Assembly: GCA_038064915.1 (NCBI GenBank)
Contig: JBBTSB010000009.1
Span: forward strand, 20,773 to 84,772
Reading direction: 5' to 3'
Length of the DNA: 64,000 nt
Source of the DNA: Patescibacteria group bacterium
Lineage (GTDB): Bacteria > Patescibacteriota > Minisyncoccia > 2-02-FULL-40-12 > IGHO2-01-FULL-4-A
The notes beneath the pieces are model-generated. The model was not told where the DNA came from. It saw only the letters and a list, made by a program, of their open reading frames with translations, and ran no database searches. Below, piece after piece: positions 5,672-16,374 of the stretch (position 1 is its first letter; every line of letters begins with the position of its first letter). The position numbers and the translations under genes are program-made.

Positions 5672-6139
5672 TTACCAAGCAAAGTGTGCAAACGCTTTGT
5701 TTGCATCAGCCATACGATGAGTGTCTAATTTCTTTTTGACGGCATTCCCCGTGTTGTTGACGGCGTTGATCAGTTCCTCGGCAAGCTTTTGCTGCATGGG
5801 TTTTCCTTTCACACCGCGAGCGGAAGTGATGATCCAGCGTACAGCTAAGGTCATGCGACGTTCAGGAGTGACTTCGTAGGGAACCTGGTAGTTGGCCCCA
5901 CCTATACGACGGCTCCGGAGTTCCACCTTGGGACCGGCGTTTTCCATGGCGGCATCAAGCACCTCAAGGGCAGGTTTTTTGAGCTGGTCCGCTGCTTGCT
6001 TGAGGGCACCGTAGACGATACGCTCGGCAACGGTCTTCTTGCCCGCATACATCATCTTATTGATCAACTGCGCAACCAATACCGAGCTATACGTAGCATC
6101 GGGTTCGGCAACCTTTCTTTTGGTAACTTTACGTCTCAT
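5672..6139 (-). CDS. rpsG: 30S ribosomal protein S7
   Basis: Typical S7 sequence; position between rpsL and fusA. Confidence 0.95.
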   Translation of the reverse strand: MRRKVTKRKVAEPDATYSSVLVAQLINKMMYAGKKTVAERIVYGALKQAADQLKKPALEVLDAAMENAGPKVELRSRRIGGANYQVPYEVTPERRMTLAVRWIITSARGVKGKPMQQKLAEELINAVNNTGNAVKKKLDTHRMADANKAFAHFAW

Positions 6140-6141
6140 GG

Positions 6142-6549
6142 TTATTTGTTTTTCGCTCCGTATTTTGAGCGGCCTTGTTTACGTTTGTCTACCCCCGTAG
6201 CATCAAGACGGCCACGGACGATGTGGTACTGGACGCCTGGCAAGTCTTTGACGCGTCCGCCACGCACCATCACCACGGAGTGCTCTTGGAGATTGTGCCC
6301 TTCGCCGGGAATGTATGCCGTGATTTCCATGCCATTGGTGAGTCGTACACGTGCCACTTTGCGCAAGGCAGAGTTTGGCTTCTTGGGGGTCATGGTTTTG
6401 ACAAGCAAACACACTCCGCGCTTGTAGGGCGACCAGTGATTGACGGGACGATTTTGAATAGTATTAAAACTGTACGACAAAGCTGGCGACTTGGTTTTTG
6501 TCGCACGACTTGAACGAGGCTGCTTGAGCAGTTGTCTAAAGGTTGGCAT
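6142..6549 (-). CDS. rpsL: 30S ribosomal protein S12
   Basis: Highly conserved S12 sequence ([33 protein letters not shown]). Confidence 0.95.
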
Positions 6550-12754: not shown

Positions 12755-13066
12755 TTAAACTTTCTTAAATACCTCCTTTACCTTCACAAACCTTCCCTCA
12801 TGTTCCGGTGCGGCTTCGACAAGATCCATCGGATTCCCATCCCACCACGGCACGGCTTCGTCTTTCCGAAAAACATCTTCAAGTCCCGTGACCTGCGCCG
12901 TCGGCTCCACGCCTTCGGTGTTCACCTCTTTGAGTTTTTCCACGTACGTCAAAATCTGCCCAAGCTCCTTGGTCATTTTTTCTTTTTGTGCATCATCAAA
13001 CTCCAACCTCGCCAATTTGGCAATGTGTTCAACTTGTTCTTTGGTGATAGTAGACATTAAGTCCAA
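12755..13066 (-). CDS. gatC: Glutamyl-tRNA(Gln) amidotransferase subunit C
   Basis: GatC-like sequence (ITKEQVEHIAKLARLEFDDAQ); located upstream of gatA. Confidence 0.85.
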   Translation of the reverse strand: MDLMSTITKEQVEHIAKLARLEFDDAQKEKMTKELGQILTYVEKLKEVNTEGVEPTAQVTGLEDVFRKDEAVPWWDGNPMDLVEAAPEHEGRFVKVKEVFKKV

Positions 13067-13121
13067 TCTAGCACAAAAAAAGTTAGCATGCTATATTCGC
13101 AATACTCTGGGAGGTGGCGCA

Positions 13122-13301
13122 ATGGAAATTCTAAGAATCTGTCCGCTTCACAATGTGGCATTTGATAAGTTCTGTTCAAAGTGCTACCTACGGGACCCCC
13201 GCTGCCCTCAGTGCGGGAGTTCCAACTTTGGAAGTGAAGACGAGGGGCTTGTGATCAAGTGGACCTGCTACGATTGCAGGCACACCTGGACCGAGCAATA
13301 G
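13122..13301 (+). CDS. Small Cys-rich zinc-ribbon protein (59 aa), PRCP-motif family, paralog A
   Basis: RBS GGAGGTGG 5 nt before the ATG. Sequence MEILRICPLHNV...CSKC...DPRCPQCG...WTCYDCRHTW. GC-rich coding sequence. Followed by a conserved hairpin. Confidence 0.5.
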   Translation: MEILRICPLHNVAFDKFCSKCYLRDPRCPQCGSSNFGSEDEGLVIKWTCYDCRHTWTEQ

Positions 13302-13323
13302 CTCCTCCCGCCCTCGCGGACGG

Positions 13324-13376
13324 CAGCCCTCGCGCATTGCGCTTGGAGCTCGCGTCGCGGGGGCTGTTGTTTTTAT
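13324..13376 (+). terminator. Structured hairpin repeat copy 1: 11 bp stem CAGCCCTCGCG/CGCGGGGGCTG, conserved 21 nt loop, then a T-run
   Basis: About 90% identical over roughly 80 bp to 14273-14350, including the stop-codon context TAGCTCC and the loop CATTGCGCTTGGAGCTCGCGT. Confidence 0.6.
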
Positions 13377-13437
13377 TGAATGCAATTGGATTGTAACGAT
13401 CACCACACCCACCATATCCTTAGTTCTACATTCCAGA

Positions 13438-13460
13438 CCGGCCGTGTCAGAATATAGAAT
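13438..13460. repeat. Inverted repeat left arm CCGGCCGTGTCAGAATATAGAAT abutting the stop codon of the PaaX-like gene
   Basis: 21/23 match to the reverse complement of 14000-14022. Confidence 0.7.
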
Positions 13461-13999
13461 CACGAAAGTTTATATTTTTTCTCAAATTTTTTATTGAGCT
13501 CGTCTCCCAACGTAGGAACAACAATCAGATGCACAGAAGAGCGGAGCATGAGAATATCAACAAGCTCACTGATTTCTTTATCGCAAACATGAGGAGTAAT
13601 AAAGACACTCTGTTGCAATTTGGTACAATCCCACTCTTTGAGTTTATCACGAAAAAGCTTACGCGCATTCCTTCTTTTTTCAGGAATATCGAATATAACG
13701 ATACGCCATTGGTGGTCCCATCGTTTTCCCGATGGATCAAATGAAAGCTCCTGCAGTCGATAGTAATCAATGCGCGCACTTCCCTTTTTGGTTATATGGA
13801 TGCCATTTTGTTTCTGTTGTATAAATCCATCCCGCTCAAGACGCTTGAGTGCTTGATTGATTTCCCATTCCCGATAACCTGGGCTCGATCGCATCATTTT
13901 GTTGGAAAGTGAATTACGACTAAAAGAGACTTCCATGATATACATCAACTCTCCTAAAGCTAGGAAAATATTTTTCACAATATTTTGTCCTTTTCCCAT
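13460..13999 (-). CDS. PaaX-like transcriptional regulator (winged helix plus PaaX_C / Cas2-fold-like C-terminal domain)
   Basis: N-terminal wHTH-like segment (EWEINQALKRLERDGFIQQKQNGIHITKKG). C-terminal W-DHQW-RIVIFDIPEKRRNARKLFRDKL...QQSVFITP matches the PaaX_C pattern. AT-rich, unlike the flanking small genes. Confidence 0.55.
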   Translation of the reverse strand: MGKGQNIVKNIFLALGELMYIMEVSFSRNSLSNKMMRSSPGYREWEINQALKRLERDGFIQQKQNGIHITKKGSARIDYYRLQELSFDPSGKRWDHQWRIVIFDIPEKRRNARKLFRDKLKEWDCTKLQQSVFITPHVCDKEISELVDILMLRSSVHLIVVPTLGDELNKKFEKKYKLS

Positions 14000-14022
14000 A
14001 TTCTATATTCTAGCACGGCCGG
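14000..14022. repeat. Inverted repeat right arm ATTCTATATTCTAGCACGGCCGG abutting the ATG of the PaaX-like gene
   Basis: Reverse complement matches 13438-13460. Contains the -10-like TAGAAT/TATAGAAT immediately upstream of the ATG, so a leaderless transcript is possible. Confidence 0.7.
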
Positions 14023-14093
14023 TTCCAAATATATAACTACGTTTTGTTCACAATAAACTCTCTTTCTCTTAGGATTTTGGCGAGGAGGTCATC

Positions 14094-14273
14094 ATGAAAG
14101 ATGATCGAGAAACCTGGCCTCGATGTCCCTATGTGGGACTACCCGGAGGTGAGTGGTGCGACGGGCACACGTCGGATGGACTCTGCCCACCGGGATGCTC
14201 CGAGCATGTCGCCAATGTTCGGGATGAGAGGGAGAAGCGCCTCCATGAGGCTCTCACTCCGGATTTTCAGTAG
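14094..14273 (+). CDS. Small Cys-rich protein (59 aa), PRCP-motif family, paralog B
   Basis: RBS GAGGAGG 6 nt before the ATG. Sequence MKDDRETWPRCPYVGLPGGEWCDGH...GLCPPGCSEH. Hand-translated; it is below the ORF-track size cutoff. The 14101 frame in the ORF track runs through the terminator repeat and is rejected. Confidence 0.45.
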   Translation: MKDDRETWPRCPYVGLPGGEWCDGHTSDGLCPPGCSEHVANVRDEREKRLHEALTPDFQ

Positions 14274-14288
14274 CTCCCGCCCTTGCGG

Positions 14289-14347
14289 ACAGACAGCCCT
14301 CGCGCATTGCGCTTGGAGCTCGCGTCGCGAGGGCTGTCTGTTTTTAT
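14289..14347 (+). terminator. Structured hairpin repeat copy 2: 16 bp stem ACAGACAGCCCTCGCG/CGCGAGGGCTGTCTGT, same conserved loop, then TTTTTAT
   Basis: Near-identical to copy 1. Confidence 0.6.
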
Positions 14348-14364
14348 ACAACAACTCACCCTAA

Positions 14365-14416
14365 CCCTCTCTTATAGATAAGAGAGGGAATTTCTTCCCC
14401 CTTATCTATAAGGGGG
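14365..14416. repeat. Double-hairpin palindromic repeat, copy 1 (CCCTCTCTTATAGATAAGAGAGGG ... CCCCCTTATCTATAAGGGGG)
   Basis: Two perfect hairpins. Reverse complement of the copy at 57795-57852. Sits at the 3' end of ligA. Confidence 0.8.
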
Positions 14417-14427
14417 ATTCGAGGGGG

Positions 14428-16374
14428 TTACTGAACGAGTTTCAGAAATTCTCCTTCATTCAATATCTTCACCCCCAGTTTCTTTGCCTTCTCGGCTTTA
14501 CTTCCCGGTTCACTGCCGACCACCACATAGCTCGTTTCTTTGGAGACCGATGACGACGCATCGCCACCGTGGGAACGGACGAGTTCTTCTGCCGCTTCTC
14601 GACTCATGCTTTCCATCGATCCCGTAAATACAAACGTCTTGCCTTTGAGTTTATTGGACTTTTGTGTAGATTCCACCGGTAAAATCGCAATATGTTTTTT
14701 TAATTTAGTAATGAGCCTGTCGTGTGCAAACCAATCAAAAATACTTTTGGCTACGACTCCCCCAATGTCTTTAATAGCGGCGAGCTCTTCGAGCGAAGCC
14801 GACCCGAGCTTCTCGAGGGTTCCGAATTTTCGCGCGAGATCGACAGCTGTTTCTGATCCCACATGCGGAATTCCCAATCCATAAATAAAGCGATCCAGGG
14901 CTATTTTTTTGTGAGACTGAATTGAAGCAACTGCGTTTTCTGCCGATTTGTCGGCAAAGCGATCGAGGTTGAAAAAATCTTCTTTGGTGAGCGTAAACAA
15001 ATCCGCTGCGTCGCGCACGAGTCCAGCATCCATCAGCGCGTCTATGATCTTTGGCCCGATGCCGTCCATGTCAAACGCGCCTTTGGAAATAAAATGATAC
15101 ATGCCTTCACGTTTGATGGCGGGGCAATTTTTGTTGACGCATTTATACGCAACCTCCCCTTCAACACGCTTGATTGTTTCATTGCACGCAGGACACTTCC
15201 TGGGAAATTGAAAATTCTTTTCCTTGCCCGTGCGCAGTTCGGTGATGGCTTTTTTGATATCAGGAATAACATCCCCTGCACGGCCGACAACAACCGTGTC
15301 ACCGATTTTGACATCAAGACGTTTTATTTCATCTTCGTTGTGAAGCGTCGCGCGGGAAACCGTCGTGCCGCCGATTTCCACAGGCTCCAGTACTGCGACG
15401 GGGGTAAGCGTTCCCGTGCGGCCGACGCTGACAATGATGTCGTTGAGCTTGGTCGTCGCCTCTCGCGGTGAAAATTTGTACGCGATCGCGCCCCGCGGCG
15501 TCTTGCCGATGACGCCCAGCTTGCGGAACATCGCCTCATCATTGATTTGCACGACAATTCCGTCTATTTCGTAGTTCAGTGATTCGCGATGTTTCTCCCA
15601 GTAATCCCGAAATTCCTGTACTTCCTTGAGATCTTTGCAAAATTTATTGTGCGGATTTGTTTTAAAGCCCAGATCATGCAAAATCCTGTGCTCGTCTTCA
15701 TGCGTCTTTTGTCCCAGATCCGTAATGAGCGAATATGCGTATGAATCCATCTTGCGTGAAGCGGTTATTTTTGGATCAAGCTGACGAATGGAGCCAGCGG
15801 CAAGATTGCGTGGATTTGCATACCCTTCTGCTTTAAATTCTTCAAATTCTTTTTTAGTAATAAAAACTTCGCCCCTGAGCACAATCTCCTCCTCATGGTC
15901 AATGGTCAATGGTACAGCGTCAATGGTTCTGAGATTTTGAGTCACATTTTCGCCTACGGTACCATCTCCCCTTGTTGCTCCTATTTTTAATATCCCTTTT
16001 TCATAGACTAATTCAATCGCAAGACCATCCAACTTCAGCTCACAGTAGTATCCCGAATCCCCCGCCTTGGGGTCGATGCGCCTAATACGTTCAAGCCATT
16101 CGCCCAAATCGTCCTCATTAAATGCATCTAAAAGCGAGAGCATGCGAGTTGGATGCGTGAATTTTTCAAACTTATCAAGTGGGGTGCCACCCACGCGTTG
16201 CGTTGGCGAGTCAGGTGTGACAAGCTTCGGAAACTGCGTTTCCAAGTCAAAAAGCTCTTTTTTGAGGCTATCTTCAACGCTTTCTTCTACGAGTGGTTTG
16301 TCCAAAACCAGCCGGTGGTAGCGGTATTTATTGATAAGATCGCGAAGCTTTTTTATTCGTAAATTTGGATCCAT
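14428..16374 (-). CDS. ligA: NAD-dependent DNA ligase LigA
   Basis: Adenylation KxDG motif (CELKLDGLAIEL), OB fold, Zn finger, HhH and a C-terminal BRCT domain. Confidence 0.9.
   Translation of the reverse strand: MDPNLRIKKLRDLINKYRYHRLVLDKPLVEESVEDSLKKELFDLETQFPKLVTPDSPTQRVGGTPLDKFEKFTHPTRMLSLLDAFNEDDLGEWLERIRRIDPKAGDSGYYCELKLDGLAIELVYEKGILKIGATRGDGTVGENVTQNLRTIDAVPLTIDHEEEIVLRGEVFITKKEFEEFKAEGYANPRNLAAGSIRQLDPKITASRKMDSYAYSLITDLGQKTHEDEHRILHDLGFKTNPHNKFCKDLKEVQEFRDYWEKHRESLNYEIDGIVVQINDEAMFRKLGVIGKTPRGAIAYKFSPREATTKLNDIIVSVGRTGTLTPVAVLEPVEIGGTTVSRATLHNEDEIKRLDVKIGDTVVVGRAGDVIPDIKKAITELRTGKEKNFQFPRKCPACNETIKRVEGEVAYKCVNKNCPAIKREGMYHFISKGAFDMDGIGPKIIDALMDAGLVRDAADLFTLTKEDFFNLDRFADKSAENAVASIQSHKKIALDRFIYGLGIPHVGSETAVDLARKFGTLEKLGSASLEELAAIKDIGGVVAKSIFDWFAHDRLITKLKKHIAILPVESTQKSNKLKGKTFVFTGSMESMSREAAEELVRSHGGDASSSVSKETSYVVVGSEPGSKAEKAKKLGVKILNEGEFLKLVQ

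Follow-up and report, generated by a model that had tools for sequence, protein, structure and literature searches.

The present study concerns a small gene in a 64,000-nt stretch of DNA from a Patescibacteria group bacterium (contig JBBTSB010000009.1), hereafter called the window, in which coordinates are counted from the first letter. The gene lies at positions 13460..13999 on the minus strand, and its coding sequence (CDS) specifies a protein of 179 amino acids (aa) with a predicted winged helix and a Cas2-like PaaX_M domain. It is enclosed by two dyad-symmetric sites, to neither of which a strand was assigned. The downstream site, of approximately 40 bp (13421..13460), overlaps the stop codon by one base, and the upstream site (14000..14039) abuts the ATG. 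The palindromes and the enclosed gene form a self-contained cassette of approximately 620 bp.

In a sequence-only reading of the window, the gene was described as being flanked by inverted repeats (IRs) of 23 bp that match at 21 of 23 positions and bracket the CDS directly. Both statements were borne out. IR-L (CCGGCCGTGTCAGAATATAGAAT, 13438-13460, within the downstream site) differs from the reverse complement of IR-R (CCGGCCGTGCTAGAATATAGAAT, 14000-14022, within the upstream site) at 2 of 23 positions, and 100 dinucleotide-preserving shuffles of the window yielded no match to the IR with three or fewer mismatches. IR-R directly adjoins the ATG (13999), and the final base of IR-L is also the final base of the TGA stop codon (13460-13462). 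The 23-bp repeat is real, but it is part of something longer. It extends outward to 40-nt arms (13421-13460 and 14000-14039) that are 80% complementary and imperfectly palindromic in their own right, with the centre CCGGCCG. What was read as an inverted repeat is one dyad-symmetric site present in two copies, one on each side of the gene. When all 65 open reading frames (ORFs) in the window with 150 aa or more were compared, only this one had a repeat common to both flanks (score of 18; runner-up, 10).

The palindromy is most evident in the ortholog on another contig, L001 (L001:114-151). The arms of this ortholog are 46 nt long and 89% complementary, and each is palindromic with the same centre. 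The four copies, two in the window and two in L001, align well. The copies within one genome are more alike than the orthologous copies, with ATAGAAT in both copies of the window and GTATAAT in both copies of L001; the pair at a locus co-evolves.

In the output of another gene caller (P0001), the protein begins at M19, and AGGAG precedes this codon. A start at M19 with this Shine-Dalgarno sequence was rejected, since GTT stands in place of M19 in P0002, the 75%-identical ortholog, and the first 18 residues are conserved in the alignment of the family. Therefore, the ATG adjoining IR-R is likely to be the true start. The right arm of the upstream palindrome contains an extended -10 element, TGCTAGAAT (14007..14015, minus strand), which is a candidate leaderless promoter and is kept in L001. 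The spacing between this element and the ATG is 7 nt in the window and 8 nt in L001 (TGCTAGAAT-N8-ATG). No Shine-Dalgarno sequence was found before the cassette ATG. The earlier expectation of a -10-like element without a Shine-Dalgarno sequence, and of a leaderless transcript, agrees with these observations. Furthermore, gatC, located 900 bp from the cassette gene, shares the promoter design (TGCTAGATT-N7-ATG; 13055..13073, minus strand). The starts of gatC (13055-13073) and the cassette gene (13997-14015), both on the minus strand, have the form TGCTAGAWT-N7-ATG and lack a Shine-Dalgarno sequence, which suggests that leaderless mRNAs are present in this organism.

The downstream copy of the palindrome also contains an inward -10-like element, TGTCAGAAT (13445..13453, plus strand), in which C replaces the first T of the hexamer. 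The same T-to-C change is found in the downstream copy of L001 (TGCCAGAAT); therefore, both orthologs have CAGAAT instead of TAGAAT. CAGAAT is presumably a weakened antisense promoter.

No further copies or half-sites of the window repeat were found within the 64 kb. When the core ACCGGCCGTGYYAGAAT was compared with 185,579 species genomes, 117 single matches were obtained, which is within a back-of-envelope chance estimate of a few hundred, and the matches inspected had unrelated flanks. The sole cluster of matches was the Saccharibacteria tsf-frr promoter, at a conserved intergenic site (L012:6447-6474). It has the same design (TGCTAGAAT-N8-ATG) and is unrelated to the cassette. The absence of other IR copies is not decisive because each cassette of the family described below carries its own palindrome sequence.

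The protein matched the Pfam model PaaX_M (PF20803) with an E-value of 2.4e-20 and 72.9 bits (cut-off, 24) and the model CRISPR_Cas2 with an E-value of 6.5e-6 and 26.7 bits (threshold, 23.8). Residues 40-80 gave only weak generic winged-helix matches in Pfam. A winged helix was predicted, and hhalign aligned it to residues 51-90 of E. coli PaaX with a probability of 68%. No Pfam match to PaaX_C (PF08223) was found in the protein, which ends at residue 179, whereas E. coli PaaX has this domain. Similarly, the PaaX N-terminal model PF07848, against which E. coli PaaX scores 2.4e-29, was not matched. The score against the NCBIfam PaaX equivalog TIGR02277 was 28.2 bits, below the cut-off of 264.55, and that against NCBIfam cas2 was 21.4, slightly below the cut-off of 24.5. 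The best Foldseek matches of the AF2 model (pLDDT 84.6) in the PDB were E. coli PaaX (8a39), Rv0674 (3kfw), and the Jannaschia PaaX-like protein (3l09), followed by Cas2 proteins; a sequence search of the PDB identified no significant relative. Judged by these profile and model comparisons, the protein is a winged helix joined to a Cas2-like PaaX_M domain, lacks PaaX_C, and is not a PaaX orthologue. The sequence-only reading had proposed a winged helix-turn-helix followed by a C-terminus of the PaaX_C or Cas2-like fold; the winged helix and the Cas2-like fold were retained, whereas the domain is PaaX_M, which is central in PaaX, and PaaX_C is absent.

The Cas2 signature residues D95, D104, R113, Q129, S131, and C139 are 95-99% conserved among 152 family representatives. 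E. coli PaaX has other residues at the positions of D104, R113, and Q129. No Y1_Tnp match and no match to a transposase family in Pfam or NCBIfam were obtained for the protein. Membership in a defence system was rejected, as PADLOC matches were limited to Cas2 and winged-helix models. A phage origin was also rejected; no family member was found in 2.9 million viral contigs, and there was no meaningful PHROG match. No tandem or CRISPR array was detected within the 64-kb window, as the sequence-only reading had already stated. The neighbours of the window gene and those in 112 related flanks are housekeeping genes, with no cas1 or CRISPR setting.

An exhaustive HMMER search identified 2,847 clusters (50% identity) at E < 1e-3, nearly all of 160-200 aa. 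Where the members are named at their source, the name is 'repressor' or 'PaaX'. To examine the bracket in relatives, the 140 bp around the start was compared with the 140 bp around the stop in 80 related metagenomic loci, and a repeat was accepted when its score exceeded the 99th percentile of mismatched-locus controls. The starts of the relatives were assigned heuristically, and the flank comparison is independent of them. The two zones shared a repeat above the cut-off, with scores of up to 47, in 43 of the 68 loci in which both flanks were present. When neighbouring genes were used as a control, a repeat was shared between the flanks in 2 of 91. Strong palindromes numbered 41 adjoining family genes versus 15 in the other approximately 330 kb. 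The palindrome bracket is a family-wide trait that is specific to this family.

The repeats of the relatives, which measure 30-70 bp with a median of 40 bp, are palindromes of near-perfect symmetry. They share a GC-rich centre (consensus approximately GCGA|TCGC; CACG-NN-CGTG in the closest relatives) with A/T-rich shoulders, and the outer arms are wholly different between loci. The downstream copy usually exceeds the upstream one in length and perfection, and in the window it likewise forms the better palindrome. At several loci, the upstream copy comes to within 10 nt of the start codon, and at several the downstream copy runs into the stop codon. In type-B cassettes (L201:4151-4187), the downstream palindrome lies within the 3' end of the CDS and is constrained both as a DNA site and as protein. 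Each related locus examined (with flanks of 3 kb on either side) contains exactly two copies; the only exception seen was L138, in which copies are present at 2876, 3416, and 4464. The third copy is located just upstream of an adjoining class-I (Trp/Tyr) tRNA-synthetase gene, which is thus also bracketed. This arrangement could reflect the regulation of a neighbour or the capture of a gene. Solo palindromes of the same class (with inverted outer arms and a GCTNNNGC-type core) that differ in sequence were found at L176:76-122, L176:6216-6265, and L208:4120-4160. These lie near a cassette or kilobases away from one and could be footprints or the ends of further cassettes located outside the DNA covered here.

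Tandem arrays and paralogues were rejected, with one family gene present per locus and one in the window. A conserved partner gene or regulon was rejected as well; the neighbours span 125 different Pfam families, mostly housekeeping, and their orientation is not constant across loci. A search of the accessible literature found no description of such cassettes and no paper that joins PaaX with Patescibacteria or with Cas2. This family of palindrome-bracketed cassettes in the genomes of ultra-small bacteria (Patescibacteria) is very large and apparently undescribed.

Three loci show the same cassette in different settings. In L176, L197, and L141, a unit of approximately 650 bp is 82-87% identical, and the homology stops at the outer edges of the palindromes on both sides. 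The neighbours of the unit differ: pth and S1 in L176, an unknown gene and an ABC1 kinase in L197, and secA and an HNH gene in L141. The cassette is also present in L208, the S1 protein of which is 91% identical to that of L176. However, in L210, L211, and L212 (S1 79-80% identical), pth and S1 are 94-108 bp apart, with neither cassette nor palindrome. Since the empty sites lack a palindrome, both palindromes arrive together with the gene. Insertion into a pre-existing palindrome with duplication of the target, in the manner of CRISPR repeat duplication, was rejected for the L176 lineage on the same grounds. The cassette is a discrete unit that is absent from empty sites in sister genomes. Relocation between different loci was seen in this one trio, and presence versus absence was seen at two loci. 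In L176 (3398-3425), a TAGAT pentanucleotide tandem repeat of approximately five copies directly adjoins the right palindrome on its outer side.

These results bear on two possibilities raised by the sequence-only reading, namely, a mobile element and a pair of operators. The former is supported for the family in that homology is limited to the cassette and empty sites exist. However, it does not hold in the sense of a miniature inverted-repeat transposable element (MITE) or an element with terminal inverted repeats (TIRs): most pairs in relatives are direct or symmetric, the window contains no other copies, matches in the species genomes are at chance level, and direct repeats indicative of a target-site duplication are absent next to the arms of the window, L001, L176, L197, and L141. 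Other IR copies and such duplications just outside the IRs had both been suggested as things to look for. The paired-operator possibility was also partly upheld. The sites have dyad symmetry, their span of approximately 40 bp is that of the PaaX operator, and the upstream copy lies over the -10 element, whereas nothing supports the pairing of mRNA ends that had been suggested along with it.

In an explanation without mobility, the gene would be an ordinary autoregulated repressor with two operators, one close to the promoter and one at the far end of the gene, that loop the DNA, and the gain and loss described here would reflect gene turnover together with fast intergenic divergence. The operator of E. 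coli PaaX is TGATTC-N27-GAATCA, with a span of 39 bp, and the repressor also acts on its own promoter (PMC9493321). The span of the palindromes matches that of this operator, and the upstream site overlaps the -10 element. Vertical inheritance between the window and L001 (protein 75% and GatA 78% identical, with the same neighbours) also agrees with a non-mobile repressor. However, units that are 82-87% identical between different genes, with homology ending at the palindrome edges, and the empty sites argue against it, as do the presence of different family members in the same slot of close relatives, the outlying GC content of the cassette (both described below), and the lack of other target sites and of a conserved neighbour. 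We consider this explanation to be unlikely.

The slot of the window cassette, between gatC and ligA, was compared among relatives ranked by GatA identity. In the window, the cassette is held in a variable island of 1.36 kb (13067..14427), which is absent in L202 and L204 (GatA 80-81%), where ligA and gatC are 2 nt apart. L207 (81%) has a single small-ORF module only. L001 (78%) has the same cassette as the window with gatC and gatA adjoining and a protein that is 75% identical. Cassettes identical to that of the window are present in the samples ERR3858115 and ERR3858113. In L201, L203, and L206 (83-84%), the slot holds a family member that is 23-26% identical, with another palindrome pair centred on CCATATGG. 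The cassette in the window has a GC content of 39.1%, which ranks among the lowest 0.6% of windows of that size, whereas the small-ORF modules beside it (56-61%) rank in the top 0.2-2.3% of the window. The slots of these genomes have in common only the small-ORF promoter (TTGACA-N17-TAGGAT) and GC-rich terminators. The shared promoter is located 7 nt and the shared terminator 46 nt outside the window palindromes. Since the shared elements sit just outside the palindromes, the swapped segment is essentially the cassette.

In L205 (GatA 83%), the slot is occupied by a cassette of another kind. A RAYT-like Y1 transposase of 229 aa (with an HFH motif) and a second ORF of 111 aa (L205:1769-2865) are bracketed by two copies of a REP-like palindrome of their own, AATCAAGGTTGAACCTTGATT. 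The transposase matches Pfam Y1_Tnp (1.2e-6) and NCBIfam REP_Tyr_transpos (4.4e-8). This arrangement raises the possibility that the cassettes are non-autonomous, hairpin-ended elements that a Y1 transposase of the IS200/RAYT type moves in trans by acting on single-stranded hairpins, with the encoded protein as cargo or as a regulator. The lack of a target-site duplication, as in IS200/IS605, would fit, and the palindromes show compensatory changes and might fold into hairpins. However, the arms differ with each cassette, so that one transposase could not recognise all of them, and the orientation of the pairs is not fixed, whereas the ends of IS200-type elements are strand-specific. Moreover, the 64-kb window contains no Y1 homologue, and only 1 of 84 related loci has one. 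In that locus, L136, a homologue of the L205 Y1 transposase (5838-6527; E 1e-29) is located 2.3 kb from the family cassette; it is the sole co-occurrence. We regard movement in trans by a Y1 transposase as quite unlikely.

The remaining features of the island flank the cassette as two modules on the opposite strand (13122-13374 and 14047-14344), each consisting of a strong TTGACA-like-N17-TAGGAT promoter with a CT-rich spacer, a small Cys-rich ORF, and a GC-rich hairpin terminator. The first module includes a zinc-ribbon-like ORF of 59 aa (13122..13301, plus strand), which is convergent with the cassette and has sub-threshold zinc-ribbon matches, followed by a GC-rich hairpin terminator (13305..13374, plus strand). 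The second includes a Cys-rich ORF of 59 aa (14094..14273, plus strand), which is divergent from the cassette and has the promoter TTCACA-N17-TAGGAT at 14047-14075, and a second, 92%-identical copy of the GC-rich hairpin terminator (14274..14344, plus strand). The terminators of the window are direct repeats. The promoter motif is kept across the related islands (L001, L201, L203, L205, L206, and L207), whereas the small ORFs differ between genomes. Just past the ligA stop codon, two short tandem palindromes, CCCCCTTATAGATAAGGGGG and CCCTCTCTTATCTATAAGAGAGGG (minus strand), are present at 14365..14412; similar CCCCTTA..TAAGGGG palindromes bracket the small-ORF module of L207 (2848-2877 and 3134-3163). 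A sub-threshold Rfam match to group II intron D1-D4 (14318-14472, minus strand; 20.9 versus 34.5 bits, E 0.067) lies over the terminator hairpins and is probably due to chance.

Whether the palindromes act as duplex DNA or as hairpins was considered from their mismatches and orientations. On the sense strand, the mismatches comprise 14 G-T and 15 A-C; there is no G-U excess. The 43 pairs of the relatives are direct in 25 cases, symmetric in 12, and inverted in 6. The lack of a G-U bias and the unfixed orientation fit a symmetric dimer on duplex DNA. Two sub-groups with a common core, TGCTGGAGCA, and different outer arms are 64% identical in the winged-helix half of the protein and 86% in the Cas2-like half, whereas the respective values within one sub-group are 86 and 87%. 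This co-variation of protein and site is as expected if the winged helix reads the arms.

The mismatch and orientation data speak against the proposal that the palindromes form RNA hairpins at either end of the mRNA (5' and 3'), where they would serve as stabilisers, as terminators, or in protein-bound translational control. Some loci are suggestive of this function: L190, L185, and L128 have A-tract/GC-stem/T-tract shapes like those of bidirectional terminators, a -10-like box is located just upstream of the palindrome in L167, L123, and L201, and the downstream copy is usually longer and more perfect. However, besides the absent G-U excess and the non-conserved orientation, the predicted transcription start in the window is downstream of the upstream palindrome, and terminators of a generic kind would not have to be the same at the two ends of a gene. 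Folding as single-stranded DNA is also weak in the window, at -1 kcal/mol for the upstream copy (z +1.0) and -4 kcal/mol for the downstream copy (z -1.0), and nothing in Rfam came near the threshold for the palindromes. RNA hairpins are a very unlikely explanation.

We also considered an invertible segment, that is, a phase-variation switch flipped by a recombinase encoded elsewhere. The copies are inverted in the window and L001, and one palindrome appears to be flipped between L176 and L208. Nevertheless, direct and symmetric pairs predominate in the family, and both arms in the window have inward -10-like elements, so that an inversion would change little. Furthermore, no recombinase gene adjoins the window cassette, and the cassette or its ortholog has the same orientation in all four contigs that carry it (the window, L001, L002, and L003). 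A switch of this type is extremely unlikely.

We propose, as somewhat more probable than improbable, that the gene forms a self-bracketed cassette, in which a dimer of the encoded protein binds both palindromes, the upstream site autorepresses the leaderless promoter, the downstream site serves as an anchor, and the two sites together bound a horizontally mobile unit. In PaaX, dimerisation is a function of the Cas2-like domain. The dimer would bind its own palindromes as double-stranded DNA, with the variable winged-helix halves reading the outer arms, which are specific to each locus, and with the conserved Cas2-like core placed over the shared GC-rich centre. Because the upstream copy covers the -10 element of the leaderless promoter, binding would shut the gene off. 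The downstream copy, at the stop codon and with a weakened -10 element, may be a second anchor that provides looping or insulation from neighbouring transcription. The palindrome pair would mark the boundaries of this unit, which is acquired, lost, exchanged, and relocated from genome to genome. We infer the binding to the palindromes, the autorepression, and the role of the downstream copy.

Several observations weigh against the self-bracketed cassette as proposed. Some concern mobility: relocation rests on one trio of loci, the island inserted in the window lineage is larger than the cassette, and the cassette has neither a target-site duplication nor a recognisable transposase or recombinase. 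Others concern the operator function. No other target sites are present in the 64 kb, and a role of the regulator beyond self-control is not visible. The palindromes of the window are imperfect and make poor hairpins. The arms in the family are palindromic over their whole length. When both positions of a pair differ between the two copies of a locus, pairing is kept in 24 of 41 double changes, compared with approximately one-third by chance. A simple dimer operator would not require such compensatory changes, which point to the formation of hairpins or cruciforms or to the self-correction of palindromes. Moreover, the left palindrome of L176 (2744-2796) is reverse-complemented relative to that of the orthologous L208 (40 of 45 positions match as the reverse complement and 34 of 45 directly). 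Its centre is TGGA in one and TCCA in the other, as if it had been flipped in place. The near-invariant Cas2 signature, which is lost in E. coli PaaX, hints at a role beyond dimerisation.

A further possible explanation is that the winged helix-Cas2-like protein is itself the mobility enzyme or a site-specific processing factor for its own palindromic ends. This explanation is compatible with the near-invariant acidic and basic Cas2 residues that PaaX has lost, with the palindromy of whole arms, the compensatory changes, and the flipping of a palindrome in situ, and with the lack of any other gene in the moving unit. We consider it doubtful that the protein has this activity.

Members of this family are orphan genes between the housekeeping genes of streamlined Patescibacteria genomes. 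What is new is that each gene has its own palindrome pair and that the trio is gained, lost, swapped, and relocated together. A vague annotation as a 'repressor' or 'PaaX' thereby becomes a defined genetic element. If the palindromes are only operators, the cassette is a self-insulating autoregulator that is horizontally transferred. Should the Cas2-like protein itself act on its repeats, the cassettes would be a categorically new class of autonomous mini mobile elements based on a Cas2-family protein. They would also be a free-living case of a specific partnership, outside CRISPR, between a Cas2-like protein and palindromic repeats of approximately 40 bp, with a bearing on the origin of the link between Cas2 and repeats, and a possible living analogue of an early association of this kind.

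Compared by the traits that define them, the cassette belongs to neither PaaX, Cas2, RAYT/REP, IS200, nor TIR transposons, although it shares features with each. A TIR transposon or MITE has inverted arms, as do the window and L001 with their 40-nt arms; however, the cassette has no target-site duplication, dispersed copies, or recognisable transposase, and the pairs of its relatives are mostly direct or symmetric. It differs from an inverton in its single orientation in four contigs and in the lack of an adjoining recombinase. IS200 is approximately 0.7 kb long and has one gene of approximately 150-180 aa, palindromic ends, and no target-site duplication, and its gene is tightly silenced. The cassette resembles it in size, the single gene, the palindromic ends, and the lack of a target-site duplication. 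However, the cassette protein has another fold family and other catalytic motifs, the ends are copies of one symmetric site, the orientation is not strand-specific, and the copy number is low. The REP/RAYT systems similarly have a single small gene bracketed by two copies of a palindrome of approximately 20-40 bp, and the RAYT-like cassette of L205 has the same design in the same slot. In contrast, the window protein is not an HUH/Y1 enzyme, and dispersal of the palindrome was not seen in the 64 kb or in the 3-kb flanks on either side in relatives, where solo palindromes of the same class were few (L176 and L208).

Among regulators, lac O1/O2 and gal OE/OI combine a promoter-proximal operator with another one that lies a few hundred bp off, inside the gene or past it. 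The cassette differs from these looping systems in that the regulated gene is the regulator itself, with no other target visible. PaaX of E. coli and Pseudomonas is the best structural match (8a39 and 3l09), with a winged helix followed by a Cas2-like PaaX_M domain. Its operator is dyad-symmetric and spans approximately 39 bp, and PaaX shuts down its own promoter. The 40-bp dyad sites of the cassette, the upstream one of which lies over the predicted -10 element, are candidate operators of this form. PaaX_C is the effector domain that binds phenylacetyl-CoA. The window protein is half the size of PaaX, lacks PaaX_C, and keeps Cas2 residues that PaaX has lost. No paa gene was found among the neighbours of the window cassette or of related loci, the sites of the cassette bracket its own gene, and the whole unit moves. 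In comparison with Cas2, the Cas2-like domain of the window protein is fused to a winged helix, and there are two repeat copies around its own gene rather than an array; no cas1 was found in the genes called on related contigs, and no CRISPR array was found in the window. Nevertheless, the C-terminal domain has the Cas2 fold of Cas2/VapD-like proteins with the signature F-D-I-P / R / Q-x-S-V-F, and, as with Cas2, the protein of the cassette is physically associated with palindromic repeats of approximately 36-40 bp.

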